This document shows, piece by piece, positions 245 to 63,918 of a stretch of 64,000 nt of DNA. The first letter of the stretch is position 1; the number at the start of each line of letters is the position of its first letter. Origin of the DNA: Okamejei kenojei. Its lineage: Eukaryota. The notes under the pieces were generated by a model. It was given only the letters and a program-made list of their open reading frames with translations. It ran no database searches and was not told where the DNA came from. Where the stretch lies: positions 19,964,001 through 20,028,000 of the forward strand of contig CM069150.1 of assembly GCA_035221665.1 (NCBI GenBank), written 5' to 3'. The translations under genes were made by a program, and so were the position numbers.

Positions 245-3200
245 CTGAAATTGAAATACCATTGGAAAGTTGGGAGATGCTAGTAACTATTTGATAATAT
301 AACCCCACATTGCCCCAATATTCCCTAATGCCAGCTTCAACACTTAATATCTGCCTAAAATTTTAGATATTGTACACAGCACAGGTTAATTTAATGTATT
401 ACTGTCACATGTACAGAGGTGCAGTGAAAAGCTTTGTTGTGTGCTATTCAGTCAGAAAGACTTCACACGATTACAATTAAGCCATTCACAGTGTACATAT
501 ACGGGATAAAGGGAATAACGTTTAGTGCAAGATAGATGTCCAGTAAAGTCCAATTAAAGATAGTCCAAGGATCTCCAATGAGGTAGATGGTAGTTCGGGA
601 CCGCTCTCTAGTAGGAGAGAGTTGAGTTGATTGTCACGTGTACCGAGGTACAGTGAAAAGCTTTAGTTGCGTGCTATCCAGTCAGCAGAAAGAATACATC
701 ATTACAATCTGATTCAGTTGGAGCTGTTCCCAAACCGTGCTGTGTTGTACTCTGATCACAAGATCGGCGAGACCTTGATCCCCATTTTTATTTCAATTTA
801 CTGGCAGTAAAGTGCAAAATGCAGCATTGGAAAGAAAGGAGGTACTTGAAACTAGCCTAAAATTGAATCCATATTGTCATGAAAAGGGACCTTGATAGTT
901 TGGGCATTACTCAAACTTACACCACCCTGACAACATTATAATGCATTACAACTGAGTGAATTGACAACAATGAAATGCACTACAATTCACCAAGAGAGCC
1001 CATGATGACTTACCTTGTAAATCAAAAGAGTTTGACAAGCCAGGAGCACATTGAGCCCTGAATAACTGAAGGAGCGATTTTATAATAAATACTAATACTA
1101 AATACTAATACTATTGTAGGCTTGGTCATCTTAACTCCAACTTGCAATTCACTTGCAGCCCAAAATACCTAGTGATTACACAACTTCTTTAAGAATTAAT
1201 GGGCAGCACAACGGTCCCAGTGGTAGAGCTGCTGCCTCACAGCACCAGACCAGGGTTCGATCCTGACTCAGGTGCTGTCTGCGTGGAGTTTTCACGTTAT
1301 GCATGGGTTTCCTCCAGGCGCAACATAGTCCTTGTGTTTGTATGTTAATTGGCCCTCTATAATACCGCCCTTATGTGTAGGGAGTGGGTGGGTTAACATA
1401 GAACTAGCGTGAATGGGCGATCAGTGGTCAGTATGAACTCGTTGGGCCGAAGGCACTGTTTCCCTGCAACTTTAGAGTACGAGTGAAAACATTTGAAGCA
1501 GATTGTTCTGAATTTCTTAGTGGGTTTTGAAATGTTAATTGCGAAGCAACTCACTGAACATTAATAAAGTGAAGTATTTAAGAGAAAAGGTTAGTGTTTT
1601 GGAAAAGAGAGAGCAACCAACCTCCTCAAATTTCAAGTCACAGCAGAGGAAGGATCGCTCCAGGAGAAACTGTACCGTTGGCACTTTAACTGTATCATCT
1701 TTATCCAGGATTATCTGATAACAGTTGCTTTCCTGAATTTTCTCACCCGACCTGGTGTGCACATGAAGAATAACACTATTCTTGTGTCCACATCAATAAA
1801 AATCATCATTTACAGCCATCAGTACAGTAACTAGAAACAAACTGTTAATAAAATTAGAAAGGGGTTAGGATTTGAACATAGTTTAGTTTCAGAAATTGTA
1901 TGTATATTGCAAGGGGACCAGTTTTAATTTAGGTTACCAAGGAAACATCAGAAGGAAAGAGAAAAGTGAAGATGTAATGAGTTAATGAAGACACAAGGAA
2001 CTGGTTTACAAAAAGAAAAGGCACAAAGTGCTGGAGTAAATCAGCGGGTCAAGCAGCATCTCTGGGAGGGGGTTGGCTGATAGGCCCCACCTGAATTCCC
2101 ATTATTTTCTTGCGTTCCCCTTCCACCTATATTCTTTCCTCTGGCTTCACATTGTGTTCCTCTTCTAGCTTTATCCTCTATCTCACACCTTTTGTCTCTT
2201 CATCTCTGGCCTTTGCCCTACCATCTACCAAATTGCTCCAGGATTGCCAGTTTATTTGTTCAAATCCGAGACAAAAATCCGTGTTTAAACTTTGTATGGC
2301 ACTGCAAGAGAACTCTAAGGTTAAAATCAGTGTAAAAATTACAAGAACTAAAAATTCTAATTTAATTTTCAGAATTGTCCTCCAAAACAAGTTAATTTGA
2401 TTTCTCATTTTTTTAAATATGTGAACAAACATGGCTCAAGATTAAAACACAATGCTGGAGGATCTCAGTGGGTCAGGCAGCATCTTGGAGATGGACAGAC
2501 AACACTTGTTGAGATGTATCTTCAGAGTGATGGCGTTGAGGAGAGAAAGTTGTTGTCACCTACTGTGTGGAGTTTGTACGTTCTCCCTGTGACCACGTGG
2601 AATTTCTCTGGGTGCTCCAGTTTCCTCCCACACTCGAAAGACACATAGGTTTGTAGGCATCTATAAAATTGTAAAGTGTGTAGGATAGTGCTAGTATGGT
2701 ATGGGGTGATTGCTGGTCGGCGAGGACTCATTGGATTGAAGGGCCTCTTTCTGCGCTGTATCTCAAGTCTAAAGTAAAGTCTACTCTGCCCATCTTCCCA
2801 TCACACTCACTCACCTGTATCCACCTGTCACTTGCCAAGCTTTGCTCCACTACCATCTCTCTTCCCCCTACTCGAATCTGAAGAAGGGTCTCAACCCAAA
2901 GTCACCTGTCCATTCCCTCCACAGATGCTGCCTGACTGGCTGAGTTCCTTCAACAGTTTGTTTTTTTGCTCAAGATTCCAGCATCTGCAGTCGTTTGCAA
3001 TCACCTTGGGTGGAGATGATTTTGGTTTCAAAACTATACAAGGAATCGATTATTTCCTCTCCCTTGCTGCCTCACAGCGCCGGAGACCCAGGTTCGACCC
3101 TGACCTCAGGCTCTGTCTGTACGGAATTTGCTTGTTCTCTCTGTGACCGCGTGGGTTGCATCCCGGTTTCCTCACACATCCCAAAGACGTACAGGGTGTA

Positions 3201-6200
3201 GGTTGATTAGCTTCTGTAAATTGTCCCTAGTGTGCACGGGTTGTCATTGATTGATGTGGACTCTGTGGGCTGAAGGACCTGCTTGCACAGTATCTCTAAA
3301 CAAAGCATGTCAGGGCAATTGGTGAGTCCAGAGGCAAAGATATAAATTAATTAAGATCTTCAGGACATCTAAGCTGACACAGGACGTGAAAGAAATGCCC
3401 TCTTGTAATGAGCATGAGATTTCAACGTTGAAATCAATTTGAAAAAATTAATAACATCTTTAATGTAAACTAAAACTGTTACTATCGAACAAATATTTAC
3501 AAAGATGAAAATCTGGGACAGCTAGTGACAGAAACAACACATTTTCATTACTTTTAATGCATTTTTTTCTTCTACTTTTTCTCTTGACAAAATTAAAGAG
3601 TTTAGAAATTAAAGCTAGAATGGGTGACATTCGCAATGAAGGGCAATTTCAAAAGTATGACAGAGCTTCCAAGTGAAGCATTAAAAACTAGTCCAATTGG
3701 TACCAGAATCAATTCAAGCAGCATCTGTGAGGGTGAAAGGCGTTTGCTGATATCTAGCGGGGAGTCCTGATACAGTGTTTTGACCTGAAACATGAACATA
3801 CACCTTTTGCTTTCACAGATGCTTGACAAGCTAAGTTCTTCCCTCATTGTTTTATGTTCAATCACTTTTAGCTTCTGAGTTGGATTTGTTTAATGGACAT
3901 GAACTGATCAGAAATAAAGTCTATGAAGAAATGTCAATGGCTTAAAAAAACAAAGAAAAGTACCTGATCTTCAGCAGTGGATCAACCGCCAAGACTTCAT
4001 GCAGTAGGACATTGATAAACTCTTCTGGATCTAGAATGCAAATGATCAGAAGTGTTCATGTTCACATGAACCGTGCTATTCACTTTAATTTTAGTTATCT
4101 ATTACAATAGTTCAGGAAGTTAGGCACTGGCAGATTGCAGTGTACATTCATGATAGGTTAGTTACTGCTCTGATTTGAAGACAGGCACTAAACAAATCCA
4201 AAATAATGCTTGGTTTTGTATGCAAAAGTGTGGGCCAGGCTCTCTAATACAAAATATAATTGATGTTAAATGAATTGCAGTTATAAACACAATATCATTC
4301 AGAATTCATTAAAGGAAACCTTATTATATGTTGGGTTATCACTCAAGAGTTTGCTAATAGAATGTTCAGGTCAATACCTGTACTTGGCAATTAAATGTAA
4401 TTTTAAAAATATCCTATTGCAGTTAATGCTAGACACAATCCAGAAAAAAATGTACATCTTAGTACATCGACGAGAAAGCAAAGGGAAAACTTAAAAGGAT
4501 CAAATTTAGACGTATTTTAGAATGCCATAATTCTGAATGCCATAGTTCTGGTGTTGGTCAAACATGCTGGTTCAAGGTAATTGTATTGAACAATAAGGGG
4601 AACAAACCAAACATTAGAGGCCATAGGTTTAATGTGAGAAGGGCAACGTTTAAAGGAGACGTCCAGGACACGTTTTCTACAGAGGGTGGCAAGCGCAGTA
4701 ACCCGCTGCCGTGGGTGGCAGTTGAGGCAGATACTATATCTGCAGCATCTGCAGTTCCTCCCTACTTTCCGTAGACCTCCTTGACCACACTTTGTTCTAG
4801 ATATGAGCATCTGTCCCAATTTCACATTAATGTATTTAGACCAACCTGGTTGCCATTCCTGATTGACGAAAAAAAACAAGGAAACATTGCAATTCAAAAA
4901 TAAGAAGGCCTTAATAATGGCAAAAAAACATACTTAAATTCAGGAAAAACTCTCCCACACCAACAATAAAAACGTGGATTTCAAATATGTCTGAAACGTT
5001 ACACTTAGAAGATGTGAGATTCCTCCTAGCAGGCAAATCAGACCATTTCCAAAAGTTTTGGTCTCCATTTATCGACTTATTACAAGCATAGGGTGCAACA
5101 CAACTCTGAAAATAAATGGTATCAGGACCTGGTGAGGGGTGTGTAAAGATACGAAGGAGGTACATCCCTTTTATCTTAGCTTATTTTACTTTCTCATATT
5201 TTCTGTCTTCTATTTTTTTTTCTTTCTTTTCCTTTGTTTTTCTTTTTTAGTCTATCTTGTGTCTTACGCTTCTACGGGCTCTTCCTGATCACTCTCTCAT
5301 GCACTTACTATCCTATCTAACTCTCTCTATTCTTCTTCTTATTCTTCTTCTTAAAGTATAAAATAAGAAGTGGTACAGGAAATGTATTATGTTATTTTTG
5401 GCTTATATCATTGTGTAATATTATATCATTACTTCTAATAAAGAAAAAAAAAAATTTAAAAAAAAGAAGGCATCAGGAGAATGTTTATACTTAACAAAAA
5501 TAAAATAGTTACCCTTCTCTGCCGAGACAAACGTGTCACATCCTAACAGCTTCCTCAATTTCATCACCTTCTCTGCATTCACAAACCCAGTCCTAGGATC
5601 AAAGTATTTGGTGGTTAACTCTCGGCGTCTTGAATATTTATTTAAATATCCGGACCCTAGATTACAGAGAAAATTACAAAAGTGCAACATTTCAGAACAC
5701 TTCTACACTACACTGAATTTTCTGACAAAGTAAAAAAGTCTGTAAATGACAAAGAATGAGTGGCAGGAAATCTTAATTAAAAAGTGCTGGAGTAACTTAG
5801 CGGGCCAGACAGGACCGACAAAGGGAATGAAAAAGCAACGCTTCTAGTTCGCACCCTTGAAAATGGTCCTGAACCGAAATGTTATCTGAAGGGTCCCAAC
5901 ATGAAACATTGCCCATCCATTCCCTCCACAGATGCTGCCTGGCCCACCGACTTAGCCCAGCACTTTGTTTTACTCAAGATTCCAGCATTTGCGGGTCCTT
6001 GTGCTTCTATAGGAAATTTTATTTCTTAATCGTTCCAACAGCAAATTGATCATTTCACTGAAATGTTATATTCTCTACCAATTAATCTAGTGCCACTAGA
6101 CCACTAGTCAGAAGAAATAGAAGTGTATATAATAAAGTGGCATAAATAAAGGGGTATACAGTAAATCCTCACAATAATGGACCATGTTTGGGGGGGGGGG

Positions 6201-9200
6201 GGGGGGAGAGATGCTGTTCATTATTGCCAATTGTCTGCTATAACCTTGTGAGGGGGGGTTTAAGTTTAACCCAAGCCAGGAGGGAAAAACCCACCGCGGG
6301 GGTGGGTTAAACCAGCGAGATTCTCAGGCCAGGGAGCCATTGAGCCCTCAGCCCCACACGCGGTGCACCAGGGGAGAGCCCAGTATTCACACTGCCTTCT
6401 TGCTGCTCGCTCTCTCCCATCCCGCGAACTGGACCAACCGGAAGCACGCCATGTAATACCAGCTCGATGGGTAACTGCCGGAGGTGGAGAAGGGGTGCAA
6501 TGGGAGCATCGGTCCACTATAACCAAAATCTTCTCTAGAGGGCCGTTATTGCGAGGGTTTACTGTATTTTCAATCATTGGTCCACAATTCGTATCGCCAG
6601 TACAGATGCTCGCCCGAATTTAGAAAACCCAATCTTCCGCTTATGAAAATTATTGATGATTCCAGATCCGGACAAATAACTACATGGAATTAATCCTGCC
6701 CTCAAACAATTTCCACAGTAAGCATTGCAAAGTAGAAATTAAAATCAAAAACTCGGACTAATCTTCTATTTGATCCTACTTTTTAAAATCATTTCTTTAT
6801 TTCAATAGACTTGACCAGCAAACTGAACAGAGAATGTCATTCAATCTTGAATATCACTGCCACATGTTGGCTCTTCATCATCAAAGTGGAACCAAAGAAT
6901 ATTCTTGCCCATAACTTTGAAATATTAAAAAAAAAAGAACAAATCTTAAAATTGTCAGGTGCACGAGGCTCGGTCAGCATGGACAAATTGGGCCGAAGGG
7001 CCTATTTCTGTGCCGTATCGATACTGTGATTCTCACTTACGTTCGCAATGGGTTGACTATATCCTCCCTCAGTATTCGTTGAATTTTCTCATCATGTCCG
7101 CCGGGCTTGTGAAGTATACCATCCAATACTGAACTGAACGTGAACAAACTGAAAAATGAATGAAAAGTAAAACAATAAGGCATAACTCCGCAGAATTCGT
7201 TCTTACCTATGTGGAAATAAATGGGCTGGAAATAGAACATTTTCTATGAATGGCATTCAGCTTCGAGAGAGGAATACTCCATTCACATTTCCAGCTGTGA
7301 TTGCAATTGACCCAAATCTATACTTGCTCCGTGTAAAATATCAATGGAGCTAAAGGTAAAAATCTACCTGCTAAAATGAAGAACACACGAGGGGGGGGGG
7401 GGGCAAACAAACATATCCTCGAAATTATCCCAAATGTACAGGCCCACTTGGGATATCTGATGCATCCTACTCAGCACAGTGGCTGTCTCAGCATAGACAT
7501 CAATGTACATTCAATGAATCTCTTTCCACCCACCTTCACATACTAGCCCGTCAATTATGTTAATGTGGCCAAGTCCATTATATGCCAGCGATCATCTTTG
7601 ACATTAACAAATACTTGGTATATGCATTTTTTCCTTTAAAACACTGCCACACAATAAATGACATAAAAATGAACAAAGTAATTAGAATAACATGTTTTCT
7701 CTTGGGAGCAAATTACTCTCATTCATTTAAATTGGCCGAGTTCACATCAGCTTAGCCTGGGGAAAAAAAAGACCGTGCTGGAGAAACTCAGCGGGTCAGA
7801 CAGCATCTCTGGAAAACATGAATAGGCGATGTTACAGGTCAGGACACTTTCTTCAGACTGATTCAGGATGGGAAGAAGGGTCCCGAAACGTCACCTATCC
7901 ATGTACTCCAGAGATGCTGCCTGGCCCGCTGAGTTACTCCAGTACTGCGAGTCATTTTGTAAACCAGTATTCGCAGTTGTCTTCGTCGACCGTCAACAAT
8001 GGACCATTGTGGGCTCCACCTTTCCTAAGTCATTGGTGCTGGCTCTGTTTTGTTCTCAATTTTCATACCTCTAGTTTCCCTCTAACCTGACCCTCAGACC
8101 GAAGGATCTCAACATGAAATGTCACCTATTCCTTTCCTCCAGAGATGCTGCCTGGCCCGTTGAGTTGCTCCAGCATTTTGTGTCTATCTTCGGTGTAAAC
8201 CAGCAACTGCAGATCCTTTCTACACATTTGCAGTTCCTTCTTTCTCAGCTTTAACCTGACGTTGGCTTGGGCAGATGTATCAACTCAAGAGCTGGGACCT
8301 CTGCAGTAGATCATGTCCAGCGCAACTCAGGCCTGAGCACAGGAGAAGCCAGCAAAAGAGTAGAAAATACCACTGTCAATTTAAACCAATGCTAGCAATG
8401 GAAACTGGGACTTCTGCAGCAGTATATGTTCAAGTCCAGCTTAGTGCTGGCATCAATGCAAGGGTTGTATTCATTATATTGCTCATTAAAATCTGCTGTA
8501 AGTTTTCAAAGGTTCTCCAGTATTTTGTTTCTTATTTGCCACAGAAACCAAATTATACCCAGCATACAGTGCATTATAGCCCTTGATTTTCCTCTCTCTC
8601 CATCCCCTTCCCATCCCAGTTTTCCCACCCGTCTTACTGTCTCCGACTACATTCTATCTCTGTCCCACCCACTCCCCTGACTTCAGTCTGAAGACGAGTC
8701 TCGACCAGAAAAACGCCACCCGTCCCTTCTCTCCAGAGATGCCGCCTGTCCCGCTGAGTTACTCCAGTATTTTGTGTCTAGCACTTTTTAATCTTGAACT
8801 GCCTGTAGTAAATTGTTATGGTATAACTGTCCAACAGCATAGAAAAATGGCACCGCACAACATCAGTGCTTTCACAAGAACAGAGGTGGCACATAACAAC
8901 CAATTCAAATCTAGAAACGGGAGCCAAACCTGAAAATTGTAGAGTCTAGGTAACAAGAATTGTAATGTCCCTGAATCCCTTTCATTCTCCCTTCCATCAA
9001 ATGCTGCACTTCATCCTCACGTACTGGGGGGACATCCTGTTCCATGGTGTGATCATCTGCAATCATTTTCTCTTATAATTGAAACAACCAAAATTAATAG
9101 TTTTAGTTTTCACATATTAATCCAGTAAATTAAATGCAATTTCAAGGCCAAAAGCCTTAACATCATGCAGCACTGAAAAATATCACCAATTTTACCTGGT

Positions 9201-12200
9201 GCATTAATTGGGGTTTTGCACACATTCTTTAGTTCATGTGTGAGAAAACGTGCATCTGGTTTACAGGCTCTAAGCTGTATAAATAATGCTTTATTCCTTT
9301 CACAGACAAAATATCGCCTTTTCTCAAATGTGCCATCAGAGCCAGTTTTCAGCTCATAGTCCTAGAAATGATTTAAAAAGAAACGTTAGCTTCACATTTG
9401 TCCTCCATTGCTCCTCAATAAACTATCTACCCCTGCCTTAAAAATATTCAAAGATATTGCTGCCATTGCCCTTTGAGGAAGAGTGCCAAAGTCTCACTAC
9501 CCTCAGAAAAAGAATTGATCTCATCTTAGTTTAGTTTATTATTGTCCTGGGTACCATGGTACAGTGAAAGGATTTTGTTTGTGTGCTATCCAGCCACAGA
9601 AAAGACAAACGATATATGAATACAATCAATTCCTCCGCAGTGAACAGAGAAATTTCATAAGGTCTCCAATTAGACAGATGGAAGGTCAAGACTGCACTCT
9701 AGCTGATGAGAGGACTGTTCAGTTGCCGGTTAACAGCCGTGAAGAAACTGTTCCTGAATCTGGAGATATGTATTTTCAAAATTCTGAAGCTCCTGCCTGA
9801 TGGTGGGGGGGGGGGGAAGAGAAGAGAGTGAGTGGTCCTTGATTATGGGGTGGTGGACTTGCCGAGGCAGCATAAAGTATAGATGAAATCAATGGAAGAG
9901 TAGCTGTTTTGTGAGATCTGTCTTAAATGGAGGTCCACTTCAGGAGGATCACCTATTCTTAAAGAGATCTCTACTTCTAGATTGTCCAAGAAAAAATGTC
10001 TCCTCGACACCCACCAAGTGAAAACCTGTCACAATCTTATCTGTACACTGTGGATGAATTGATTGTATTCATGTATAGTCTTTGATTTGATTTTATTGTC
10101 ATTCCAACACACAGGGCAATAATAAATTAAACATAAATCCCGGCAGTTACAAGCCTAAAATGTGCAACCTTTCTTTAGAAGTCAACCAATCCACTCCAGG
10201 TATGAGACTGGCAAATCTCTTTAGTTTAGCAAAATTGTGCAGAAACAGGTCCTTCAGCCATCCAAGTCCACACCGACCAGCAATTCCCACACACTTACAT
10301 TATTCTACACACACCAGGAACAATTTACAACTATACCAAGCCAATTCTGTCATGCTTCCATAAGGATTTCACTGACTATACTAACCAATCACCTCAAAAT
10401 ACTTCAGAGCGGCTTCCTCAGATAAAGCACAAAAAGGTCCACTCATTTCCTTTACATAGGAAAAAAAGGAATACAGCAGCCTTAGATGATTGCGGAGATT
10501 TGGTATGTCGACAAATAATCGCTTAAACTTCTATTGGCTATTAATAGAGCCAGGATGTTTAGGCACTAAAAAACTATGAAATAGGCAGGCAAAAAGGCAT
10601 AATAAAATTACAAAAAAGGCACGGAAAAGGCATTCATTGACTAAAAGGCATAAAAAGGCATGCATTTCCACCACCAAAATATGGTTAAAAATGATAATAT
10701 AAAGGTATACTACATTAAATTACCAAAGTTGTCTGGTTGCACATAATCACCATCACTCTTTTCAAATGATCTGGTGTTAAACTCAGACAGAATATGCTTC
10801 AGTTGTGAAAAACATATTTCTACCTCAGCTGAGGTCACTGGTGCATACCCGAAACAAGCTACAGACTCTATATTCATGTCGATATCTTGTGCATTACAAC
10901 TACTTTTGAAAACTTTAGCCGTGTTTTGTATTTCTTCAAGATCTTTGTTTGCTAAAATCGTTCTCTCACATTTCCCTTGTATGTCTTTACCTATGTCAAC
11001 AGGAACTTTACGAATATCGTCAGTTACTTTGTTAAAAACCTGCAAGTTATTCACTAATGTTTCGCCATGTTTCTCATGGGAACTGATGGCTTGTGGGAAG
11101 TTTGCAAAATTGGAAGCAATAAATAGATTTTGGAGTAGACTAAACCAGCGCCCAGCGGCACGAATGAATGAACGGTGGCACCCCCGGATTCGCCCCGGTG
11201 GTGGAAATTTTCTTGTAATTTATACTATGTTAACACGTTAATAATAACATTAATATTAACGTATTAACATAGAAAATGTCATTGTAATCACGGTACAACG
11301 AGAAAATAGCACGACCTGTTAGCAAAACAGCAAAAAAAAGGCTGATTTAGGCAGTCGATCGTGAAAAAGACATTATCCTGGTGAAATCATGAAAAAAGGC
11401 ATGAAAAGGCACATGGCATTTATGGCAAAATCCTGGCTCTAGTTATTAAACTCTTTTGCTAGGGCAGTTCACAACCCTGCGGTATAAATATTGATTACTC
11501 TAATTTCATGTGGCCCTTACATTCCCTACCTCTCCGCCGCTCCCCCACCCTAGTCGTCCTGCTAGTTCCTGCTATGTTTGCATCCATTTATCCCTTCATT
11601 ATCACCTCCTCCACAGCCAACAATGGACCATTGTGAGCTCCCCCTTTCTTTGGTCATCATTGCCGGATCTGGTTTGTTCTGAACTTCTTCATGCCTCTAG
11701 TTTCACGCTCCCCTATTAGTCTGAAGAAGGGACATGACCCAAAATGTCACCTATTCCTTTTCTCCAGAGATGCTGCCTGACCCACTGAGTTACTCCAGCA
11801 TCTTGTGTCTATATTTGATAACACTTGTCAAAAAGCATCTGACATACTTACAAATATTTATCAAATTACTTGCAATCATGCAGGTCTGAAAACAAAGCCA
11901 TTACAAAACTTACCAATTCAATTCCTGCCATCCTTTGCACCATTCGTTCTGGTATACCAATCCATCTAATAACTCCGTAGACAAGATTGTTTCTTAATTG
12001 TACTTCAACCATTGACCCAACCTCAAGAGCGGGATTCTCACATCCCTCAAAAGGTTCAGAGCTGATTTGAGTCAAAGCTTTGGAAATGTGTTTAGAAGAG
12101 TCCTTCCCACGGTCCGGAATTGAAGCAGAGGAGACAAATGACTTTGGAACTTCATTAGATTGTTCCATTCCCATTCTTCTCGAAGATATACTGATAATTT

Positions 12201-15200
12201 GGGATGGTTCTTCGAATAGTTGTGTGCTCCCATTTTTTGCATCTTCTAAAACTGTAAGACAACAAGGTTAAACCACAGATATTTCATATTTATATCACAC
12301 AGATAAAAAATACCTCCGCATGAACAACCTACACCAACATATTCTTGAACTTGTTTGTTTTGTTTGCAAATACACAGGACTAGATGTTAAAAATCCAAGA
12401 TGCCAAATATCAATTTACTCCTGATGGTGATGGGAGCCTTCTGCACTCACCTATGCTCCTCCGATGTTGAGAAAGGCTAGGCAGACACGTCATTGGGGTT
12501 ATCAAGTGGGCACCTACTTTCATCAACGTTTCGCTGATTGAACCACGACGTCTCCAGTAGGCTCAGCGGTGCATTCTGGCGTCCCAGAACCACCCCCCTC
12601 TGCATCTATCTAGACGGTTATTTGGGAGACCAAATGGGGTCTTTCCTCTTCAGCCGGAGCCACTGGCTACTCCGCTCTGCTACCCGTGATGTTTCTTTGA
12701 TGGCCTGGCGTAGGGCTTGTCCGCTGATCCCCAGGTCCTTCATCAGTATTAAAGTAGATGCTGCCACAAATCCTCGACATCCAACTTCTACTGGGCAGAT
12801 CTGAGCTCTCCAGCCCCGCTGTTCGGCCTCTGCTGCAAGCTCTGTATATCGCAGTTTCTTTCTTTCGAAGGCTTCCTGCACAGCATCCTCCCAAGGGACT
12901 GTGAGCTCCACAAAGTACACCATGCGCTGACAGTTCGACCAGAGCACAAGATCAGGTATATATAATTGAACTTGATATTAACTCAGATTCTGAATATGAG
13001 CTTATCTTCCCCTTATCCCAGAAATGATTGGGTTAACATACGAGTATATGATAGCTTTTGGCCTATACTTGCTGGAGTTTGAAAGGATGTGAGAGTATCT
13101 CACCAAAACCTACAAAATAATGGAAGGCCTAGATAGTGGATGTGGAGAGGATGTTTGCAGTAGTGGGAGAGTCCAGGGCCAGAATAAAAGGAAGTACATC
13201 TAGACTGGAGATGAGGAGGACTTTCTTTAGCCAGGGCGGTGCATCTGTGGAATTCATTGCCACAGACAGTGGTGAAGGCCAAATCGTTGGGTGTTTTTAA
13301 TGCAGAGAATGATAGGTTCTTCATTAGTAAAGGTGTCAAAGGTTATGGGGAGAAGGCAGGAGAATGGGATCGAGAGGGAAAAATAGATCAACCATGATCA
13401 AATAACGGAACTGACTCGATGGGCTGAATGGTCTAATTCTACCTTCTGGACTATCTGACATGAGGAAACTTGTATCAAAGGAAAAAACCTCTCACACCAA
13501 CACCACTTCAAAAGCAACCAAAATCCAAACAAAAAATAATGTGGTTGAGAGATGTTTCTCTCATGAAATCGCTGAGCTATCTGCATGCCAATCACAGTGA
13601 GTATTGTCAGACGAAATAAAACACTTGGTACAAATTCCTTGGGGAATGGGTTTTCAAATTGGCCTCCCGAGGCAATCCGAGAAAGCTCAAACCTTTGCTT
13701 TAATAGAAAAAAACCTGCCTGAGTTGGAATACAAGACCTTTTTGATAATTCCAATTACTACTAATAATGTTATCCCAATAAATCAAAAGCAAAAGAAGGA
13801 GACTGATGCTTGGCAAACAAATAGTCACTTCAGATTGCAGAGGTAGCTGTGGTTCATTTTAGTTTTAAGAGAAAAAGCAATTTAAAAACGTTAGGGCAAT
13901 ACTATTTTGATAAAAAGGAGCCAGTATGAAATACTGCCCCTTGCTATTGCTATCTATAATAGATCATCCTCTATAAGTTGCTGAGGCTCTTTGAGGGCCT
14001 GACGTCTATCAGTCTGAAGACAATACTGCCCCGAAACATCACCTGACCATCCCCTCCCCAAATGCTGCCTGACCCGCTGAGTTCCTCCAGCACTTTGTGT
14101 TTTGCTTCACATTTTTCATCTTTGTTTTCTAAAACCCTTCACCGTTTCCACTCCATAATATCCTCCAGCCATCTCAAAATCTCTAACTCTAGCCACCTTA
14201 CTTATCACTAAATTTAATGATACATTTGGCTGTTAAGGGATTATCTCTAGCATTGCTTCAAATTTAGTTTAGTTTATGTTGTCACGTGCACCTAGATACA
14301 GTGAAATGTATGCTGCGGAAAGACGATACGGGATTACAATCAAGTTGTGTACTGTGTGCAGATACATGATAAAGGGAATAGTGTTTAGTACAAGATAAAG
14401 TCCAGTGAAGTCTGAGTAAAGTGAGATAGATTGTAGTTCAGGACTGCTCTCTAGTTGGTGATAGGATGGTTTAATTGTCTGATAACTGATGGGAAGAAAC
14501 TGTCCCTGAATCTGGAAGTGTGCGTTTCCACACCTCTGTACCTCTTGACTGTTGGGAGAGGGGAGAAGAGGGAGTGGCCGGGGTAAGGCTGGTCTGTGAT
14601 TATGCTGGTGTCCTTGCCGAAACAGCGCGAAGTGTAAATGGAGGCAATGGAAGGGAGGTTGCTTTGTGTGATAGTCTGATCAGTGTCAATAATTCCCCAC
14701 AAAATATCCTAAGCAGTTCCCAGGTGTTATGCAAAAAATAAATTGTTGCCAATGAAACATAACAGGCACAGAATACAATGTCAAACCGTTCATGCACAAT
14801 ACATGCACAAAATAAGCAGGCTTGAAACTACCATTGTACAATTAAATTTCTTACCGAATGGTTCTACTTCAGTGTTGCTGACCTGAATGATTTCTCCTGC
14901 ATTAACCTTCATGCATGGATCACCTTTCTTCCGACTTGGTCTATTGTCTTCCTACATTGAAAGTGGGGTGAGTAAGGTGGAGAGAATAGAGAAAAACATT
15001 TTGAGACAACATGCAAGTCACTGAAGCTTTAACAAGGAGAGCTCTACATAGTTTCTTCCAAGTATTACTTGCAAAATCTGAAGCAAATTAGTAAAGACAA
15101 CTTTCTCAACAAGTCAGGAAGCATCCATGCAAAGAAATAAGACAAGTCGATGTACTGCTGAAAGATCATTAACCTGAAACATGAAATTATTTTCTTCTGA

Positions 15201-16991
15201 CCCACTCAGTATTTGCAGCTCTTTGCTTGAATTTCAAATTTCCACTTTTAAACTTAAGGATGAAATATACACACAAAATAAATTAACACCAAGAACAGGA
15301 TTCTCTCTTTTTAATTTTGTTATGTTACCCACAGACATAGCTCTAGGGGCACAATTTATCTGGTGACCTAAAACACTCCAGACCAAAGTACTCAGCTTGC
15401 CAGATAATATCTTGCCTACGTGGCTTTTAATTATGCTTTAAAACTTATTCTGCTCTGCTCTCGATCAAGGGTGATCTGTTTTTTTCCTCAATCCCATTTT
15501 AGTCTCTTCTCCCTGTAACCCAATTACTTATCCTCCAGTCGTCTGTGGTCAAGAATTCCACAGATTCACCACCCTCTGGCTAAAGAAATTCCTCATCATC
15601 TCCATTTTAAAGGTATGTCCTTTTATTCTAATGCTGTGCCACCTTATCCTAGAGTCTTCCACTACCAGGAAACATCTTCTCCACATTCACTCAATTTAGG
15701 CCTGGTTCATGAATAATTATATTATTCTGGTTCATTGAAATCTGATATTAATGTATAAATAAAACCGGCATTAATCCAAAGGATCAGAATTGCTCCACTT
15801 GATACAAAACAATGACAAACTAAAGAAAAGTCAGATGATCCCCAATGCTGTTAGATAGTCCTTTTGAGCTATGTTTTACACAAGGATCCAAATAATAAGG
15901 TATAGCTGATATAAAGCTTTAAGTTCATGAAGTCAAAATGCTGATTGCTGGACAAAAGATGATTAACCCATGGAAACATAAGAGACTGCAGGTGCTGGAA
16001 TCTAGAGCAAAACACAAAGTGCAGGAAGAGCTCAGTAGGTCAAGCCGCATCTGTGGAGGGAATAGAACTTCCTCTCTCCCCCTACCCACACCACAGTCAA
16101 GCTCCCCCCCACCAGAACAATCAGTCTGAAGAAAGGTTCCGACTTGAAATATCTGTCGCGTGTGTGTGTGTGTATGCACACGCACCTACTGATTTTTTTT
16201 TGTTCTATGTTTGTACTATGTTTACATTGCTGTTGTGCTGCTGCAAGTCAAGGCCAAGGAAAGAGCGTTCACGTCGCGGCCCTGTTTCCACCAATCTTTC
16301 CACCACCATGCACAAGAAGCGCAAGACAGACACCATTGGATGCAGATGCCGAAAAGTATTGTTCAGCTCTGCTGAACAACTTCTAATCTTGTGTGTGGAC
16401 TCGATGAGAAGCAGCTGCAAGTGAGAATTTAATGTTCTGTTTCGGAACATATTTCAATACAACACTCTTCACATTTTCCAAACTGGTAAGTGCCCAATGG
16501 TTCTTTACAATTCGGCATTGTAAATACTATTTACAAACTGAACCCACAATATTTTCTGGTTATTTGCTGCTTACCATCAAGCTTACTTGAAACAATGTTC
16601 CATATAGATCCAAATCTTTTTTTCTCTGGGTATTTTCAATATTTTTGACAATTCCCACCATCTTGTTGTTCTTTCGTAGTTGAACTACGTCATTGATTTG
16701 GACTTTAGAAATGGATCTGAAGAGCGGTTCGTTCTTAAAGAGCTCGTATCGATGGGAAAGATCCTGGATATCAACAAGTAGCTCCGCTTCTTCCTTACGG
16801 ATTACTGTATAATTTCCTGGTTGCAACTTTACTACTTGCTTGAAGCGTTCCACAGTTGCGGATATTTCCTCATGTCTTAAGCGGTTGAAATAGCCCAAAG
16901 ACCCTCGCAGGACCTTTCTTCCACATGTAGTAAAATCTTTTAACACAATACAATAGCGTTTATCATTTTCAATTCCACCCATTCTTTCCAT
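136..16991 (-). CDS. CYLD-like: CYLD-like ubiquitin carboxyl-terminal hydrolase (CYLD paralog); 9 coding exons in window, 3' end continues beyond position 1
   Basis: Spliced exons 16991-16575, 14951-14855, 12251-11914, 9361-9196, 9056-8930, 7148-7041, 5592-5513, 4030-3964, 1751-1622, 244-136 (ten segments counting the last) are all GT-AG and phase-compatible. They encode a CAP-Gly domain ([34 protein letters not shown]) and USP motifs ([34 protein letters not shown]) that match CYLD. Confidence 0.93.
1622..1751 (-). CDS. CYLD-like: CYLD-like coding exon (USP domain)
   Basis: [43 protein letters not shown]; cag/gttgg boundaries. Confidence 0.92.
3964..4030 (-). CDS. CYLD-like: CYLD-like coding exon (USP domain)
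   Basis: [23 protein letters not shown]; 67 nt; tag/gtact boundaries. Confidence 0.92.
4910..5465 (+). mobile_element. L1-clade LINE 3' end (5'-truncated)
   Basis: ORF2 tail [17 protein letters not shown]...[12 protein letters not shown]-rich 3' UTR, AATAAA and poly(A); AAGAAGGC-containing direct repeats on both sides. Confidence 0.8.
5513..5592 (-). CDS. CYLD-like: CYLD-like coding exon (USP domain)
   Basis: [26 protein letters not shown]; tag/gtaac boundaries. Confidence 0.9.
6159..6564. mobile_element. Tc1/mariner (Tigger/pogo-like) MITE
   Basis: TA|CAGTAAATCCTCACAATAATGG ... CCGTTATTGCGAGGGTTTACTG|TA: imperfect TIRs with TA TSD. Confidence 0.8.
7041..7148 (-). CDS. CYLD-like: CYLD-like coding exon (USP domain)
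   Basis: [35 protein letters not shown]; cag/gtaag boundaries. Confidence 0.92.
8930..9056 (-). CDS. CYLD-like: CYLD-like coding exon with USP catalytic Cys box
   Basis: [22 protein letters not shown]; cag/gtttg boundaries; 127 nt. Confidence 0.93.
9196..9361 (-). CDS. CYLD-like: CYLD-like coding exon, second half of CAP-Gly domain
   Basis: [39 protein letters not shown]; tag/gtaaa boundaries. Confidence 0.92.
10545..11441 (-). mobile_element. Internally deleted hAT-type DNA transposon with transposase C-terminal remnant
   Basis: TIRs TAGAGCCAGGAT / ATCCTGGCTCTA; 8-bp TSD GCTATTAA / GTTATTAA; subterminal AAAAGGCA repeats; minus-strand [21 protein letters not shown] resembles the hAT dimerization motif. 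Confidence 0.88.
11914..12251 (-). CDS. CYLD-like: CYLD-like coding exon, first half of CAP-Gly3-like domain
   Basis: cag/gtaag boundaries; [38 protein letters not shown]. Confidence 0.9.
12415..12958 (-). mobile_element. Hero/R2-group non-LTR retrotransposon 3' fragment (restriction-like endonuclease domain plus 3' UTR)
   Basis: PDLVLWS...VELTVPWE...RKKLRY...PVEVGCRGF motif series, ORF 12618-12947. Confidence 0.85.
13025..13445 (+). mobile_element. CR1-clade LINE 3' fragment
   Basis: Homologous to the 42152-42722 copy. Confidence 0.75.
14855..14951 (-). CDS. CYLD-like: CYLD-like coding exon ([32 protein letters not shown])
   Basis: tag acceptor, gtaag donor, 97 nt open frame; bridges phase 0 to phase 1 as the flanking exons require. 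Confidence 0.75.
16575..16991 (-). CDS. CYLD-like: CYLD-like first coding exon (N-terminus, degenerate CAP-Gly1 region)
   Basis: ATG at 16991; acceptor before 17016; donor GTAAG at 16574. [18 protein letters not shown] resembles CYLD ELLLAITNCEERFSLFKN. Confidence 0.85.
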
Positions 16992-18299
16992 GGGGAATCC
17001 AAGGCAAGGTTAGAACCTGAAAGGGATCATACCAATGGTAAATTTTAGAATATAAGACACAAATGATAAATTAATTTAGACACAAAAGATAAATATAAGA
17101 TAGTTATTTCTTATTGTTGTTTGACTTGAATATATTTAAATATAGCATTTTCCGATTTGAATGGATAGCTTATAAAACAAAGCTTTTCACTGTACCTCAA
17201 TACACATGACAATTATAAACCTAAACCTTAGGGGTTTGTGGCATGAAAAAAAGATGAATCAACATTCAATAGATTTATGAATGCCTAATACTGCCTGTAA
17301 TCATCTTCCCTGTTCACTATACCACCAATTTTAGTTTTCATTCATAAATCTTAAATTATTAAAATATATATTTATACCTAAATTTTTAATACTGTATAAA
17401 GAACAAGTTGAAAACCCAGCACCGACCCCTGAGGCAGACCTCTGGTTACAGGTCTTCTGTCTGAAAAACAATCCTCTACCACCCTGTTTCCTATCTTCTG
17501 GCCAATTTTGTATCTAATCGGCTAGCTCACCATGGATCACACGTATAGCAACCATCCAGACCAACCTACATGAAGACAAACTCAATGATGCAGTTATAAG
17601 CAAGATTGGTGAATGCTTGCCACCTTAGAAGGGTCCATGCTTAATTTCCCTCCACGGGTGCTGCCCAAACCACCGAGCTACTTCAGCACTGGGATTTGTT
17701 CAAGATTTCAGTATCTGCAGTTCCTTTTGCATCTATTTTATTGCTCCACTGCAAAATCTCCACAACCAACCACAAAATCTCCACAACATATGCCTGCTTT
17801 TAAGGAGTTGTACTCCTCTCTCTGAATCTCTCCAGATACTGCCTGACCCACCATGTTCTTCCAGTACTTTGCGTTTTGTTCAAGATCCCAACATCTGTAG
17901 TTCCTTGCATCTCCAGCATCTATGGAGGAACTCCTCCAACAATTTGGACTTTTTCCCTCAGGCTTGTTGTTATTAATGGCATTCTCCAGCATTTTGTTTG
18001 TTTTTTTTTGGTCAGGAACCCAACACCTGCAGTCCCTGATGTCTCCAGCATCTGTAGAGGACTGAATTCCTCCAGTATTGTTTATATTTTTGCTCAAGAT
18101 CCGAGTATCTGCAGTTCCTTGCAATCTGCCACCAGCACCTGTAGAGGACTGGGTTCCTCCAACATTTTGTTTTTTTATTTGCTCAAGATCCCAGCATCTG
18201 TAATGTGGTCTGTACCAAGTGGCAGACTGGGTCTAAAAATATTGGTTGCCAGGAGACAAAGGGGGCCCACTTGCCATCGGGCAAGCTGACACCCTGGCC

Positions 18300-19080
18300 A
18301 AGCTGACATCCGCCACTGGTCTGTACGTTTCACCGGGAAGAGGGTTTGGGCCGCACACAGTGGGCTAGGGCGAGGCGAGGCGAGACGGGCAGAGCGGCCG
18401 CAGGCCCATGATGAACACCGGGAATGCGGTGCGCCGGGCCGCGGCACCTGTCTGTACGTAACCCCGGGGGTTTATTCGATGTCTGGGCTGCTGTTCACGC
18501 CCACAGACCGAGTAGGCCAGAGCGTTTCCCGACCGCTGTGACATCTCAAGCCCGGGACAGACTCACCTCCTCCTCCTGCTCACCCGCCGCCGGACCGGGC
18601 CCTGCTACTGCGCCTGCGCCACCAGTCCCACACCCCCCCGTCTCACGTGATTCCTGCAGCCGGCACTGCGCATGCGCGTGGCCCCTCTCACGTGACCAGG
18701 GCGCTTTCCAGGCACTGCGCCTGCGCCACCCTACAACCCCCCCACCTCACGTGATTCTTGCAGCGGGCACTGCGCATGCGCGTGTCCCCCTCTCACGTGA
18801 TCAGGGCGCTTTCCGGGCATTGCGCCTGCGCCGTCCCCGTCCCGCGCGCTCCGGGCCGTGCTCCATCTCGCCTGAGTCGCCGGCTGCAGCAGCGTCTGCG
18901 GAGCGGAGGGGACAGGCCGAAGAAGGGTCTCGGCCCGAAACCTTGCCCATTCCCTTCGCTCCACGGATGCTGCTGCACCCGCTGAGTTTCTCCAGCACGT
19001 TCGTCTACCTCCCATTTTGCAGCGTCTGCAGCTCCTTCCTGAGTCGCCGTGTCGGATCTGTGCTGTCGATCATGCCGTAG
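18300..19080 (-). promoter_or_regulatory. CpG-island promoter and probable non-coding first exon of the CYLD-like gene
   Basis: CpG-rich. Minus-strand donor GAG|GTGAGT at 18567/18566. Four TCACGTGA E-boxes, five NRF1-type TGCGCNTGCGC motifs and two GGGCGCTTTCC kB-like motifs between 18607 and 18832. Confidence 0.75.
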
Positions 19081-19194
19081 CCAAGGGCAACAAGAGTCAC
19101 AGAGTGACCCAGTGTGGAAACAGGCCGTCGGCCCAACTTGCCCACACCGGCCAACATGTCCCAGCTACACTAGTCCCACTAGTCCCACCCAAAG

Positions 19195-21044: not shown

Positions 21045-21050
21045 CCCACC

Positions 21051-26969: not shown

Positions 26970-27103
26970 NNNNNNNNNNNNNNNNNNNNNNNNNNNNNNN
27001 NNNNNNNNNNNNNNNNNNNNNNNNNNNNNNNNNNNNNNNNNNNNNNNNNNNNNNNNNNNNNNNNNNNNNNNNNNNNNNNNNNNNNNNNNNNNNNNNNNNN
27101 NNN
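26970..27103. other. Assembly gap (134 N)
   Basis: Run of N bases. Confidence 1.
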
Positions 27104-28277: not shown

Positions 28278-60120
<31,843 letters not shown>

Positions 60121-60274
60121 CCAAAAATTCAGCCAATATCTGTTTGTCTTTCCTTCTTTTCCTTTGTCATTTTGGTTCGCTGTGAAGTCACAAAAATGAG
60201 AGACAAAGGTTAGTTGCACAGAACAATAGTCCTGGAAAACAGTAAAGAGGAGAATCAGAATCCTACTTGAGTTT

Positions 60275-60545
60275 GTGGGAAGGAACTGCGGATGCTGGTT
60301 TACACCGAAGATAGACACAAAATGCTGGAGTAACTCAGCGGGTCAGGTATCATCTCTGAAGAAAAGGAACAGGTGACGTCTCGGGTCGAGACCCTTCTGA
60401 TTTGTTCTGTACCTTTTCACACCTCTATTTTCCCTCTCCCCCGACTCACAGTCTGAAGAAGGGTCTCGACCCAAAATGTTACCTATTCCTTTTCTCCGGA
60501 GATGCTGCCTGACCCACTGAGTTCCTCCAGCATGTTGTGTCTAGC
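60275..60545. mobile_element. Penelope-derived fold-back mini-element downstream of the GGT7 stop
   Basis: ACACAAAATGCTGGAGTAACTCAG... arm and its reverse-complement arm ...CTGAGTTCCTCCAGCATGTTGTGT. Confidence 0.75.
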
Positions 60546-61064
60546 CTTCTTGAGTTTGATGTTTCCGACTTAAGATGGCCTACCTTCTGTTGTTCACCAG
60601 TGTTGTTTGTATTGGAACCTTAAGAGCAGTTAAAATATACGCTGCAAGTCATCCTGCCTCGGAACAATTGCAAAATGTATACTTGCTTGGCAAACCTTCG
60701 CCCGCGTTTGCCCCTCCCCCATCTCCCCCGCTTTCCATAGAGTCATACAGCGTGGAAACATGCCCTTTGGCCCAACCTGCCCACACCAATCTACATGACC
60801 CATCTACACTAGTCCCATTTGCCTGCATTTGGCACATATCACTGTAAATCTATCCTATCCATGTACCTGTCTAATTGCTTCATAAATGTTGCGATTGTCC
60901 CTGCCTCAACGACTTCCTTCGGCAGCTCGTTGACCCACCACCCTAAGTGTGAAAACGTTACCCCTCAGATTCCTATAAAATGTTCCCCCTTTCACCTTAA
61001 ACCTATGTCCTGTAACTTTAAGCCATCGATATATTGTGACGCCAATGATATAAATTCATAATAT

Positions 61065-61432
61065 CTAGGAGCAGAATTAGGCCATTTGGCCCATCAAATC
61101 TACGATGCCATTCAATCTTGGCTGATCTATCTTTCCCTCTCAACCCCATTCTCCCGCCTTCTCCCCATAACTCCCGACACCCATACTAACCAAGAACCTA
61201 TCAATCTCCATCTTAAAAATATCAATTGACTTGGCTTCCATAGCCGTCTGTGACAATGAATTCCACAGATTCACCACCCTCTGACTAAAGAAATTCCTCA
61301 TCATCTCCTTACTAAAGCTGCGTCCTTTTATTCTGAGGCTATGGCCTCTGGACTCTGAGGCTATAGCCCTAGATTTTCACACTATTGGAAACATTCTCTC
61401 CACATCCACTCTATCCAGGACTTTCACTATTT
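61065..61432 (-). mobile_element. CR1-clade LINE 3' fragment
   Basis: Reverse complement of the same CR1 3' region (GAATTCCACAGATTCACCACCCTCTG). Confidence 0.75.
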
Positions 61433-61794
61433 GGTAACTGACATGTTCACTTCCAATAAGGCAATTATTAATTAGTTTAGTGAATTAACATAACTTTATT
61501 TTAGATTTAACTTTTTCTAATGAGCATCATTATCAGAAGTGTATAATCAAACATGCTGTAAGGGAGAAAGAACATATCCATCTAGTTTATTTCCCCTTGA
61601 CTTTCCTGTTACTTATCCCCTTGCCTCAACCCAGGTGGAGTTACATTATGTTGCAGTCCTTGGGTTTACTATTGGTGTTGCAAACACTATTGACTTCATC
61701 TTCTGTCTGTGCTAAATTCATAATGTATTAACTTATGCATGTTAAAATCTATCTTTGAAGATGGATACTGTTACAGTCAATAGAAATCAGACAT

Positions 61795-62077
61795 CACAGT
61801 GGCACAGCCAGTAGAGCTGCTGCCTCGCAGCGCCAGAGACCCCGGTTCGATCCTGTCCTCGGGTGCTGTCTGCGTGGAGTTTGCACGTTCTCCCTGTGAC
61901 CGGCGGGGGTTTCCTCCGCGTGCTCCGGTTTCCTCCCACGTGCGGGTTTATTTCCCGTTTCCCGTTTATTTCCCGTATCGTGTAGGGAGTGTGTAGAACT
62001 AGTGTGTGAACGATGATCGTCGCAGACTCGGTGGGCCGAAGTGCCTGTTTCCATGCTGTATCTCCAAACTAAACTAA
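61795..62077 (+). mobile_element. tRNA-derived V-SINE (HE1-like), full length
   Basis: tRNA-like head with A/B boxes (TGGCACAGCCAGTAGAGC, GGTTCGATCC), V-domain (TGCGTGGAGTTTGCACGTTCTCC...CTCCGGTTTCCTCCCAC), CR1-type tail. Confidence 0.85.
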
Positions 62078-63659
62078 ATGAATATCAGTAGCGCAGTTCA
62101 ACACGTGCATACACATTTTGTGCAAGTGATTGAGGGAACACGGAGTAATTTCTCAGTCGCTGGTGCCAAATATCTCAGCGTTGGCCTGTATTTATTTATT
62201 TATTTATTTGTTTTAAAAAACGTGTAGTGCACTGTTGCTTGTGCAGTGTTTCCTGGCTTATCGATTGTCAGGAGCCGACAAGGTGGGTTTAAGTAACCCA
62301 GCATTGAGGAACAAACAGTGCCAGTTTCTTTCCATGAATTCCTGCCCGTGAAATTCTGTTGCACTCGAGGCCCAAGGCATCTTTGCACAAACGTCTTTCG
62401 CACTGAATGTGCACAGGGTCAGGTGGGTTGTCAATGCACTGTGGACCAAGTGGGAAGACATGATAGTGTAGGGAAGTGATGCTACTACAGTTTATATGGG
62501 AAGGGAGGCAGTAAGATTGTAATCCTGGGGGTGGTCAAAGTTTGAATGCGGTTTTGGGGCAGGTGGGTGTTAAATCAGTAAGGTCAAAAGTTGGAGGGGC
62601 TGCCAGGATTAGGCTTCTGGGAGGGGGGGGGGGGGCTTTTCAGGATTGGGACCATTGAGGATAGAATCAGGGCTCAAGGTTAGTTGGATATGCGATTGAG
62701 GTTGTAGGGTGGGGAGATTCAGTCATCCACACAAGTACGGGTCTTGAGAAAAACTAGAAGCAAACAGCTTTGCAATAAAACATAGCTGGGGAAACATGGA
62801 TGCCTCCATGTCAATGGATGGGGTGAAGGCAGACCCACTTAAATGTAGAAATAAGGAAATGCAGATGCTGGTTAGTGCACAAAAGGACACAAAGCGCTGG
62901 AGCAACTCAACATGTCTGGAGAACATGGATAGGTTACGTTTGGTGTCCAGACTCTCGGTCTGGAACTGGGATTTGTCTCGGTCTGAAACTGGGCCTGGGC
63001 CTGGAATCCAGGCGAGTTGACGGCCCCAGTCTACTGGTGGCCGGAGGAGAAGAGGCCAGGATCGGCAGAGTCATTGGTCACGGCCTGCGGGTAGTTAGAG
63101 TGCAGGTCCCGTCCCGAAACGTCACCTTTCCGTGTTCTCCACGGATGCTGCCAGACCCGCTGAGTTACTCCAGCACTTAGCTTCATTTGGACACTGAAAT
63201 GTAGACAAGAATATTGCACCACTGGCATCGGACCATGTGGGGTTACTGGCTACTTGGTGTCATTCACAAGCTCTCTATGAATGCAAGTCATATACAGATG
63301 ATCAGGAAGAAAGATTCCAACATGCAGTTCCTTCATAGGCTTGGGGTTTTAATAAAATTAATTTCAGTAGCTCAGACAGACCTTGTGTTGTGTAGTGAAC
63401 TTGTAGGCCAGCAAACATTCTACACCAGGACGTTACAAAAATAGATTTAGTTTGAGTTCTAATGAAAGTCATTAACCTGAAATGTTGCATCTGATTCCTT
63501 CTCCGCACATGCTGCCTGACCGGCTGAGAATTTCAAGCAGTTTCTGTTCCTATCTTAAATCCCAGCATTCCTCTGTATTCCCATTGTGAATCGGTTTCAG
63601 CAAACCGAGTTTGAAACCGGCATGACAGTACAGTGGCGCTAGGTGCCATTTGTTAAAAT

Positions 63660-63918
63660 GTAGACACAAAGAACTGCAGATGCTGGTTTATACCAAAGAC
63701 AGACACAAGTGCTGGAGTAATTCAGCGGGTCAGGCAGCATCTCTGGAGAAAAAGCAATAGGTGACGTTTTAGGTCAGGACCCTTCTTCAGACCTCGCTGT
63801 TCGAGACCATGTTCCGTTCCACCAGTCTGAAGAAGGGTGCCGACCTAAGACACCATCATGTCCATTTCCCTCCAGTGATGCTGCCTGAGCTGCTGAGTTC
63901 CTCCAGCACTTTGTGTCA
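63660..63918. mobile_element. Penelope-derived fold-back mini-element
   Basis: Inverted arms with CTTCTTCAG and CTGAAGAAG cores. Confidence 0.7.

Follow-up and report, generated by a model that had tools for sequence, protein, structure and literature searches.

Hammerhead-bearing repeats of a skate genomic window as probable truncated 3' ends of Neptune-type Penelope-like elements

Penelope-like elements (PLEs) of metazoans carry minimal type I hammerhead motifs with a loopless, palindromic stem III (Cervera and de la Pena 2014, PMC4209133), and the same core consensus is found in the repeats that crowd a 64,000-nucleotide stretch of the skate Okamejei kenojei genome (assembly GCA_035221665.1, contig CM069150.1, positions 19,964,001 to 20,028,000), hereafter called the window and numbered from its first letter. 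The passages of PMC4209133 compared here describe thousands of dispersed hammerheads left by truncated PLEs, opposite-strand pairs 100-700 bp apart and several families per genome, with about 4,000 motifs in the coelacanth and about 9,000 in Xenopus. The skate copies are likewise mostly dispersed single motifs from truncated PLEs; they differ from the systems covered by these passages in their very high local density and in a stem I of 2 bp instead of the usual 3-5 bp, a length also seen in the entries for D. virilis, Culex and Oikopleura. The one supplement file of that work that was searched yielded no entry from a shark or skate.

Among PLE clades, Neptune and Nematis have a CX2-5CxxC linker and Poseidon does not, according to passages of PMC8557442, and a tail of 30-40 bp is often present at one end only (PMC8557442, PMC3846280; the passages give no count). 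With the Neptune clade, as described in the former source, the skate elements share a C-terminal GIY-YIG endonuclease, the linker, 5' truncation, an inverted truncated 5' copy and the one-end tail; they differ in that no full-length copy is present in the window. In a different PLE clade, passages of PMC11167929 report that the protein cuts and extends both target strands, that two sites within the RNA, shortly after the hammerhead, serve as starts of reverse transcription, and that uncleaved RNA is the dominant substrate. The two start sites of this element, Poseidon of Anolis carolinensis, bound a tail downstream of the hammerhead, like the skate tail. In vitro, Poseidon has no start-site difference between strands in these passages, whereas the skate pairs described below are either-or in 16 of 17 cases; the clades, however, differ. 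The third comparison concerns retrozymes, for which tandem arrays with a hammerhead unit serve as the working definition (10.64898/2026.07.22.740005). Animal non-LTR retrozymes (PMC7229834; 10.64898/2026.07.22.740005) share with the skate repeats a type I hammerhead, PLE ancestry and a short non-coding size, but are described in these passages as units repeated head to tail, each with a complete hammerhead, that give circular RNAs, whereas the skate copies are single or inverted, variable in length and broken.

The repeat was collected with an nhmmer profile seeded on nine window copies and iterated twice (cut-off E<=0.01), which gave 74 matches in the window and 0 in the reversed, non-complemented window. 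The repeat unit covers 6,852 bases, or 10.7% of the window, and its two catalytic boxes stand in register 17 times, whereas 100 Markov controls average 3.9 and never exceed 10. An earlier reading of this DNA (the original prediction) had reported a motif recurring more than 20 times; the repeat proved denser than that, and all 23 copies listed there lie within 25 nt of a same-strand match. The core motif is recurrent, as had been claimed, but the first 29 letters of the version spelled out in that reading never occur intact (0 exact matches); the first box with the start of stem II is found 11 times in its A variant and once in its T variant. Downstream of the core, sequence conserved to the same degree continues for about 60 nt in the short form and about 100 nt in the long form.

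Judged by its sequence, the motif is a minimal hammerhead of PLE type, with predicted cleavage. CUGANGA and GAAA boxes are combined with an NUH cleavage triplet, and the majority sequences contain the unpaired base after A9, the G10.1-C11.1 pair and a stem II of at least 4 bp; with palindromic positions 15.2/16.2, these features fit the PLE minimal consensus. The consensus given in the PMC4209133 supplement file agrees, which upholds the assignment made in the original prediction and its derivation of the copies from Penelope-like elements. Four subfamilies, A to D, were distinguished from seeds picked by eye, with 7, 20, 16 and 18 copies, respectively, 13 of the 74 remaining unassigned; mean divergence rises from 5.7% in A through 9.1% in B and 10.7% in C to 16.9% in D. 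The palindromic 15.2/16.2 pair, without a loop III, is C-G in subfamilies A-C and U-G in D. The four majority sequences agree at 11/11 core, 7/12 stem II and 11/19 linker positions, and at 32/38 positions of the first tail block and 12/12 of the distal box. The core had been expected to be better conserved than its flanks across subfamilies; it is better conserved than the linker, so that this test was passed there, though conservation in the tail blocks is close to that of the core.

Structure counts refer to 33 of the 74 matches in an author-selected alignment. Stem II cells are paired in 81.6% of cases, compared with 19-43% for slid structures; the 15.2/16.2 pair is formed in 17 copies and decays as a CpG, and the two pairs of stem I are formed in 23 and 24 copies (a third in 5). 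Only one-sided stem changes separate the subfamilies. Single-copy folding of five copies gave no signal (z +1.1 to -1.4), and a crude two-strand energy model that lacks stem I, too rough to be of use, put the energy of the dimer fold above that of the best cofold by about 8 kcal/mol in B and C and by 19 in A. Rfam gave 26 matches in the window and 5 in 54400-54600, none of them to a hammerhead family; this is not evidence against the motif because the Rfam models do not cover the minimal form. Rfam microRNA matches in the window fall below the gathering score, the best of them on inverted pairs, and were rejected.

The origin of the repeats is indicated by a Neptune-type PLE, 5'-truncated, frameshifted and bearing a subfamily A motif, at 19195..21044 (+), recognized from Pfam, homologues, tblastn and the linker motif. 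It consists of an RT (reverse transcriptase) part, a CX4CxxC linker, a GIY-YIG endonuclease, a short non-coding region, the minimal hammerhead and a short 3' end. Its Pfam RVT_1 and GIY-YIG matches are below the curated cut-offs; homologues occur in rays and the whale shark (61-67% identity), and the tblastn map shows that the element is broken by frameshifts and an internal deletion. The order of RT and C-terminal GIY-YIG endonuclease, the CX2-5CxxC linker before the latter, and the 5' truncation, inverted 5' copy, optional 30-40 bp tail and variable duplication length all fit the Neptune type, though the linker, shared with Nematis, would fit that clade as well. The bounds given for this element in the original prediction are exact, as seen by direct reading of an 11-bp target-site duplication (left 19184..19194, right 21045-21055, +), but it does not end in the hammerhead core as proposed. 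The hammerhead at 20952..20985 (+) keeps 11/11 invariant core bases and the palindrome, with a 2-bp stem I and one stem II mismatch. The element had also been said to carry the same motif as the dispersed copies: it does carry a hammerhead, but one of subfamily A, with the cleavage triplet GUU and G-U pairs in stem II, and the motif that had been spelled out is subfamily B.

Two further endonuclease C-terminal fragments lead into the motif. The first (28802..29365, +) continues through a non-coding region of about 225 nt into a subfamily B hammerhead and a short end; the tblastn match covers 28802-29035 (E 1e-15), the left boundary is approximate, and the region upstream of the hammerhead matches shorter B copies. 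The second (50393..51081, -), with its endonuclease part at 51081-50935, runs into a subfamily C hammerhead with a long tail and contains a nested subfamily A copy (about 50608-50710) flanked by a 10-bp duplication. Three PLE endonuclease open reading frame (ORF) ends therefore run into the hammerhead motif. Intermediate lengths are represented by a B copy at 11471..11815 (+), whose upstream part comprises about 250 nt of non-coding PLE sequence and which shows a faint endonuclease signal (E 0.008), and by a long-tailed C copy at 51771..52203 (+), with at least 300 nt of such sequence. Among B copies, the sequence upstream of the hammerhead comes in graded lengths of about 13, 35, 53, 62, 66+, 113 and 250 nt, leading up to the ORF; an upstream match of 214 nt at 54548 (-) was discarded as an artefact, having matched its own mate. 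At the other side, the 3' ends lie 60-110 nt downstream of the cleavage site and are bimodal, about 35 nt apart: counted beyond the first conserved box, the end lies at +10 to +18 in 19 of 29 short copies and at +47 to +54 in 22 of 32 long copies (13 unclassified). This difference agrees with the 30-40 bp length of the PLE tail in PMC8557442 and PMC3846280. From these sequence comparisons, the repeats are very probably 3' stubs of at least four subfamilies of Neptune-type PLEs, copied by the RT-endonuclease of the elements and neutrally decaying.

Coding explanations of the unit itself were rejected. The tail does not appear to encode an ORF start, since the ATG frame, though open in subfamily A, is interrupted by a stop codon in B and C; of 8 copies in which the distance between the two conserved boxes could be measured, only 5 have one divisible by three; and comparison of the unit with 167 PLE-like proteins gave no credible match. 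About +30 to +50 after position C3 of the hammerhead (e.g., 54500-54520, -), a pyrimidine tract and AG stand directly before an ATG in all four subfamilies, an arrangement that we take to resemble a second 3' splice acceptor. Internal deletions at 51143 (-), 7872 (+) and 2065 (-) join short repeated words inside the hammerhead or tail, which suggests template slippage or microhomology repair.

The 5' ends bear on how the template was made. The original prediction had proposed a separate, non-autonomous, ribozyme-processed and retrozyme-like family, that is, copies cut to unit length by the hammerhead and mobilized in trans by PLE RT. Such processing would put 5' ends at the cleavage site, and the finding that only 2 of 74 lie within 3 nt of it (one via an internal deletion), while 41 of 74 copies read through the core, counts against it. 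In its favor are the PLE-type hammerhead itself, the similar 5' ends shared by about 30 of the 74 copies, and a report of non-LTR retrozymes from PLE terminal repeats in one chondrichthyan genome (10.64898/2026.07.22.740005); but these common ends are not at the cleavage site, being located about 30 nt upstream of it. The hammerhead unit is the repeat in none of 23 tandem-repeat rows for the window, and neither head-to-tail units with complete hammerheads nor unit boundaries set by the cleavage site were found. Co-oriented neighbors differ in subfamily where both are assignable (e.g., 7872/8101 and 48828/49117), copies are nested in coding PLE ends, and the retrozymes in the passages of PMC7229834 have canonical hammerheads in tandem repeats, the minimal ones being treated there as PLE type. 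The proposal is thus highly improbable, and the copies appear instead to be variably 5'-truncated ends of coding PLEs. Several degenerate copies do lie head to tail at 17640-18200 (+), consisting of the tail part only, without a hammerhead core.

In 35 of the 74 copies, including 17 of the 34 paired arms, the 5' end falls within -10 to +10 of C3. At least two of these (20954+ and 2877+) extend further, and perhaps seven do, the other candidates being 16125+, 23484-, 24167-, 49117+ and 51184+, so that about 30 of 74 start at the 5' edge of the hammerhead. This pile-up could mean that the template was a short capped transcript or a non-coding master starting just upstream of the hammerhead, the stubs being SINE-like run-off products. 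Such a source is compatible with the truncated-PLE explanation, as it changes only the source RNA. Passages on the D. virilis Penelope intron fit it as well: the intron starts 46 bp after the start site (PMC2377424) and ends at the 5' side of helix I (PMC4209133). Positions -4 to -2 before the core are identical in the four majority sequences. The bases just before the core presumably resemble an initiator or a 3' splice acceptor. On the other side, the extension of at least two, and possibly five more, of the 35 ends and their spread over about 20 nt, not one base, do not fit a single start, and upstream sequence of lineages missing from the window would escape detection. We regard a short template as a tentative possibility.

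Many of the copies are not independent elements but arms of single back-to-back insertions, in which two stubs are joined 5'-to-5'. Seventeen back-to-back pairs were counted, compared with 3.4 expected and a maximum of 11 in 5,000 simulations. Twenty candidate pairs had been considered, and three were dropped before the count: 34146-/34245+ and 36534-/36652+, which are second-nearest partners, and 50510-/50608+, a nested insertion that also combines a long and a short arm. In 16 of the 17 pairs only one arm has the tail of about 35 nt (permutation p=2e-5), the 17th being ambiguous; the unpaired matches comprise 16 long, 21 short and 3 unclear forms. Exact flanking duplications of 10-14 bp mark 4 of the 17 pairs, compared with 1.8% of 272 controls at >=8 bp, and identify those four as single insertions: an A/A pair at 21413..21581 (tail on the right arm, 14 bp), a B/B pair at 36965..37129 (left arm, 11 bp), a pair at 40263..40396 (right arm, 10 bp) and a B/B pair at 60274..60543 (left arm, 10 bp).

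The remaining pairs with the tail on the left arm lie at 15967..16149 (right arm stopping just past the core), 23373..23590, 23680..23899, 31307..31467 (without a core), 54412..54761 (B/B, arms 93% identical), 62842..63189 (C/C, with an unrelated spacer of 149 nt) and 63657..63917 (B/C), to which 53914..54103, the 17th pair, can be added as having a left-arm tail and an ambiguous right arm. The tail is on the right arm at 5781..6013 (D/D), 7764..7978 (C/C), 34061..34248 (D/D), 36459..36595 and 51078..51307, the last with a left arm that has lost an internal part of the core and adjoins the endonuclease fragment at 51081. The 17 inverted junctions are all different. An amplified palindrome similar to a MITE (miniature inverted-repeat transposable element) was rejected, as the same junction does not recur; the sole repeat lies within a duplication that includes the flanks. 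This diverged duplication of about 360 bp, whose copies flank the PLE (18821-19179 vs 21356-21721), spans one inverted insertion together with the target duplication of that insertion; its left copy is embedded in GC-rich sequence and has G or C at many of the positions where the two copies differ.

The pairs could also have formed by fold-back self-priming on one template. Self-priming from palindromic junctions has been proposed for rotifer PLEs in passages of PMC3846280, and the junction at 36965-37129 is a perfect palindrome centered on the 4-nt stem III palindrome. Arms of a pair are more alike than random copies (0.80 vs 0.73, p=0.004, 14 measurable pairs) and belong to the same subfamily in 7 of the 8 pairs with both arms assigned. 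However, at 16 of the 17 junctions the arms are unequal or separated by a spacer, so that no palindrome results, and fold-back alone leaves the two different RT start positions of the outer ends unexplained in 16 of 17 pairs, which makes it an unlikely general route. The one-tail pairs together with the 5'-end pile-up suggest asymmetric priming at both ends, with run-off close to the RNA 5' end or a splice edge. Under asymmetric priming, both target strands would be extended, one from each RT start site, most cDNAs would abort within 100-140 nt, near the 5' edge of the hammerhead, and two short cDNAs would be joined as a back-to-back pair. In a more specific version, which we put forward tentatively, a protein dimer might prime the two strands from the distal and the proximal RT site in one event, with a strong-stop-like run-off of both cDNAs beside the hammerhead, which would mark or scaffold the RNA of the dimer instead of releasing the template. 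The hammerhead itself was presumably selected in active parents, where it was probably protein-assisted or dimeric.

The copies in the window look dead and neutrally decaying, the hammerhead being a passenger in the stubs. All 11 invariant core bases are kept in 11 of 40 core-spanning copies, and a complete fold was found in 0 of 74; a descriptor with four contiguous stem II pairs and the cleavage triplet found 3 sites, none with both palindrome and stem I. In invariant non-CpG columns of the 32 fully spanning copies, core and tail changes are equally frequent (27/320 vs 72/960, p=0.63). Two genes form the context of the repeats: a CYLD-like gene, with coding exons at 53..16991 (-, exon map and protein identity) that leaves the window at its left edge, and GGT7, with coding exons at 28278..60117 (+, residues 1-660 covered). 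The CYLD-like exon product is 89% identical to a protein of Amblyraja radiata and 78% to that of Rhinoraja longicauda, by which the source of the window is a skate.

Intronic copies might cleave or regulate the pre-mRNAs of these genes and be kept for that, and the original prediction had indeed envisaged many potential cleavage sites there. The two host coding spans contain 49 matches, 27 of them sense and 10 of these with at most one core change. However, no copy keeps core, stem II, palindrome and stem I together, and core decay equals flank decay. The 16 sense and 11 antisense unpaired copies in the coding spans indicate neither depletion of sense copies nor a gene-consistent bias, and so give no sign of selection on cleavage of host RNA. 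Strong hairpins were predicted in 15 of 17 pairs (z<=-3, 20 base shuffles) and would pair a hammerhead arm with its antisense; the minimal PLE hammerheads in the passages of PMC4209133 and PMC11167929 are inactive as monomers or protein-dependent. A role in the host genes is therefore exceedingly improbable, and the many working cleavage sites envisaged were not found.

Several observations weigh against the interpretation of the repeats as neutrally decaying PLE stubs with one tail per pair. No measure of compensatory stem changes rose above shuffles (107-464 of 500 reach the observed value; 33 copies, few lineages). At 13 of 17 pairs there is no clear exact duplication. Four short arms stop before the usual short site, which conflicts with a strict one-tail rule, and both ends of two larger composites may carry a tail (2065-, with an internally deleted tail, with 2877+; and 51184+ with 50510-). 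Read-through of the cleavage site is compatible with a ligated circular template. There is no full-length autonomous PLE in the window, where ORF start and promoter are out of view, and the many copies without detectable upstream sequence could stem from a short non-coding master invisible in one window. A cruder decay test showed slightly less decay in the core than in the tail (27/382 vs 208/2005, p=0.049); this was discounted because the test is biased by end trimming and subfamily-variable columns, and the difference vanished in the controlled test.

Dispersed hammerheads from truncated PLEs have already been described in other animals, and the skate is a new host example. We found no earlier description in sharks or skates in the literature searched, whose scope excluded most subscription papers, Dfam and Repbase; chondrichthyan families may be named in the supplements of 10.64898/2026.07.22.740005, which bears on novelty. 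As first noted, the finding matters little, as PLE hammerheads are known in many animals and the copies look dead. The one-tail-per-pair pattern and the 5'-edge pile-up go beyond the PLE passages compared here. PLE integration is poorly understood, and both patterns are open to genome-scale and in vitro testing; if the asymmetric scheme is true, many thousands of fossil records of this PLE integration step would be preserved in skate genomes. In addition, the inverted pairs would supply intronic double-stranded RNA at high density.

Outside the 17 pairs, nhmmer found 40 matches on both strands, spanning 2012..63568, some of which are elements described above. In the left part of the window they are located at 2065-, 2526-, 2877+, 3769+, 8101+, 8687+, 14014+, 17640-18200+ (four), 18918+, 22094-, 23957+ and 24167-; further right, at 25784+, 26073+, 26762-, 32619-, 34245+, 34688+, 35736-, 36137+, 36652+ and 37246+; and finally at 41073+, 43164+, 48828+, 49117+, 50391-, 53036+, 55015+, 55297- and 63462+. 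A duplication search at these 40 matches gave 5 words of at least 10 nt, compared with 2.5% in controls, and those at 18918, 22094 and 50608 look true. The unpaired matches favor the + strand (30 of 40) across both opposite-strand genes, which may be local chance.

A tRNA gene scan of the window found none. Other repeats include a GC-rich minisatellite within a GGT7 intron (20-bp unit, 23 copies, 40471-40952), a pyrimidine-rich minisatellite upstream of GGT7 (27474-27876) and a further abundant repeat, about 190 bp long and present in more than 20 partial copies (2600-2780, 22621-22807, 29784-29965, 43614-43799 and others), which we take to be probably the elasmobranch HE1 SINE together with CR1-type LINE ends. 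In R. longicauda, the last 60 residues of a neuromedin-U receptor 1 model are 70% identical to the C-terminus of the PLE endonuclease, and this tail would be either an exonized PLE piece or a gene-model artefact.

A possible minimal HDV-type ribozyme may lie at 16249-16301 (+), in an insert reaching to about 16413. Positions 15-44 of the Rfam CPEB3 model match 16252-16281 at a score (27.3 bits) that does not reach the gathering threshold of 35 (E 0.0046 for the whole window). Relative to the layout of paired elements that we assume for such ribozymes, a 7-bp helix (16258-16264 / 16295-16301) occupies the expected place of P2, P4 is absent and P1 is mismatched. The candidate occurs once in the window, antisense to the CYLD-like gene, and starts directly after a 9-bp word repeated at 16240-16248 and 16414-16422. 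An ATG at 16308 follows downstream and opens a short ORF without a real Pfam match, an arrangement that resembles the 5' end of a LINE.

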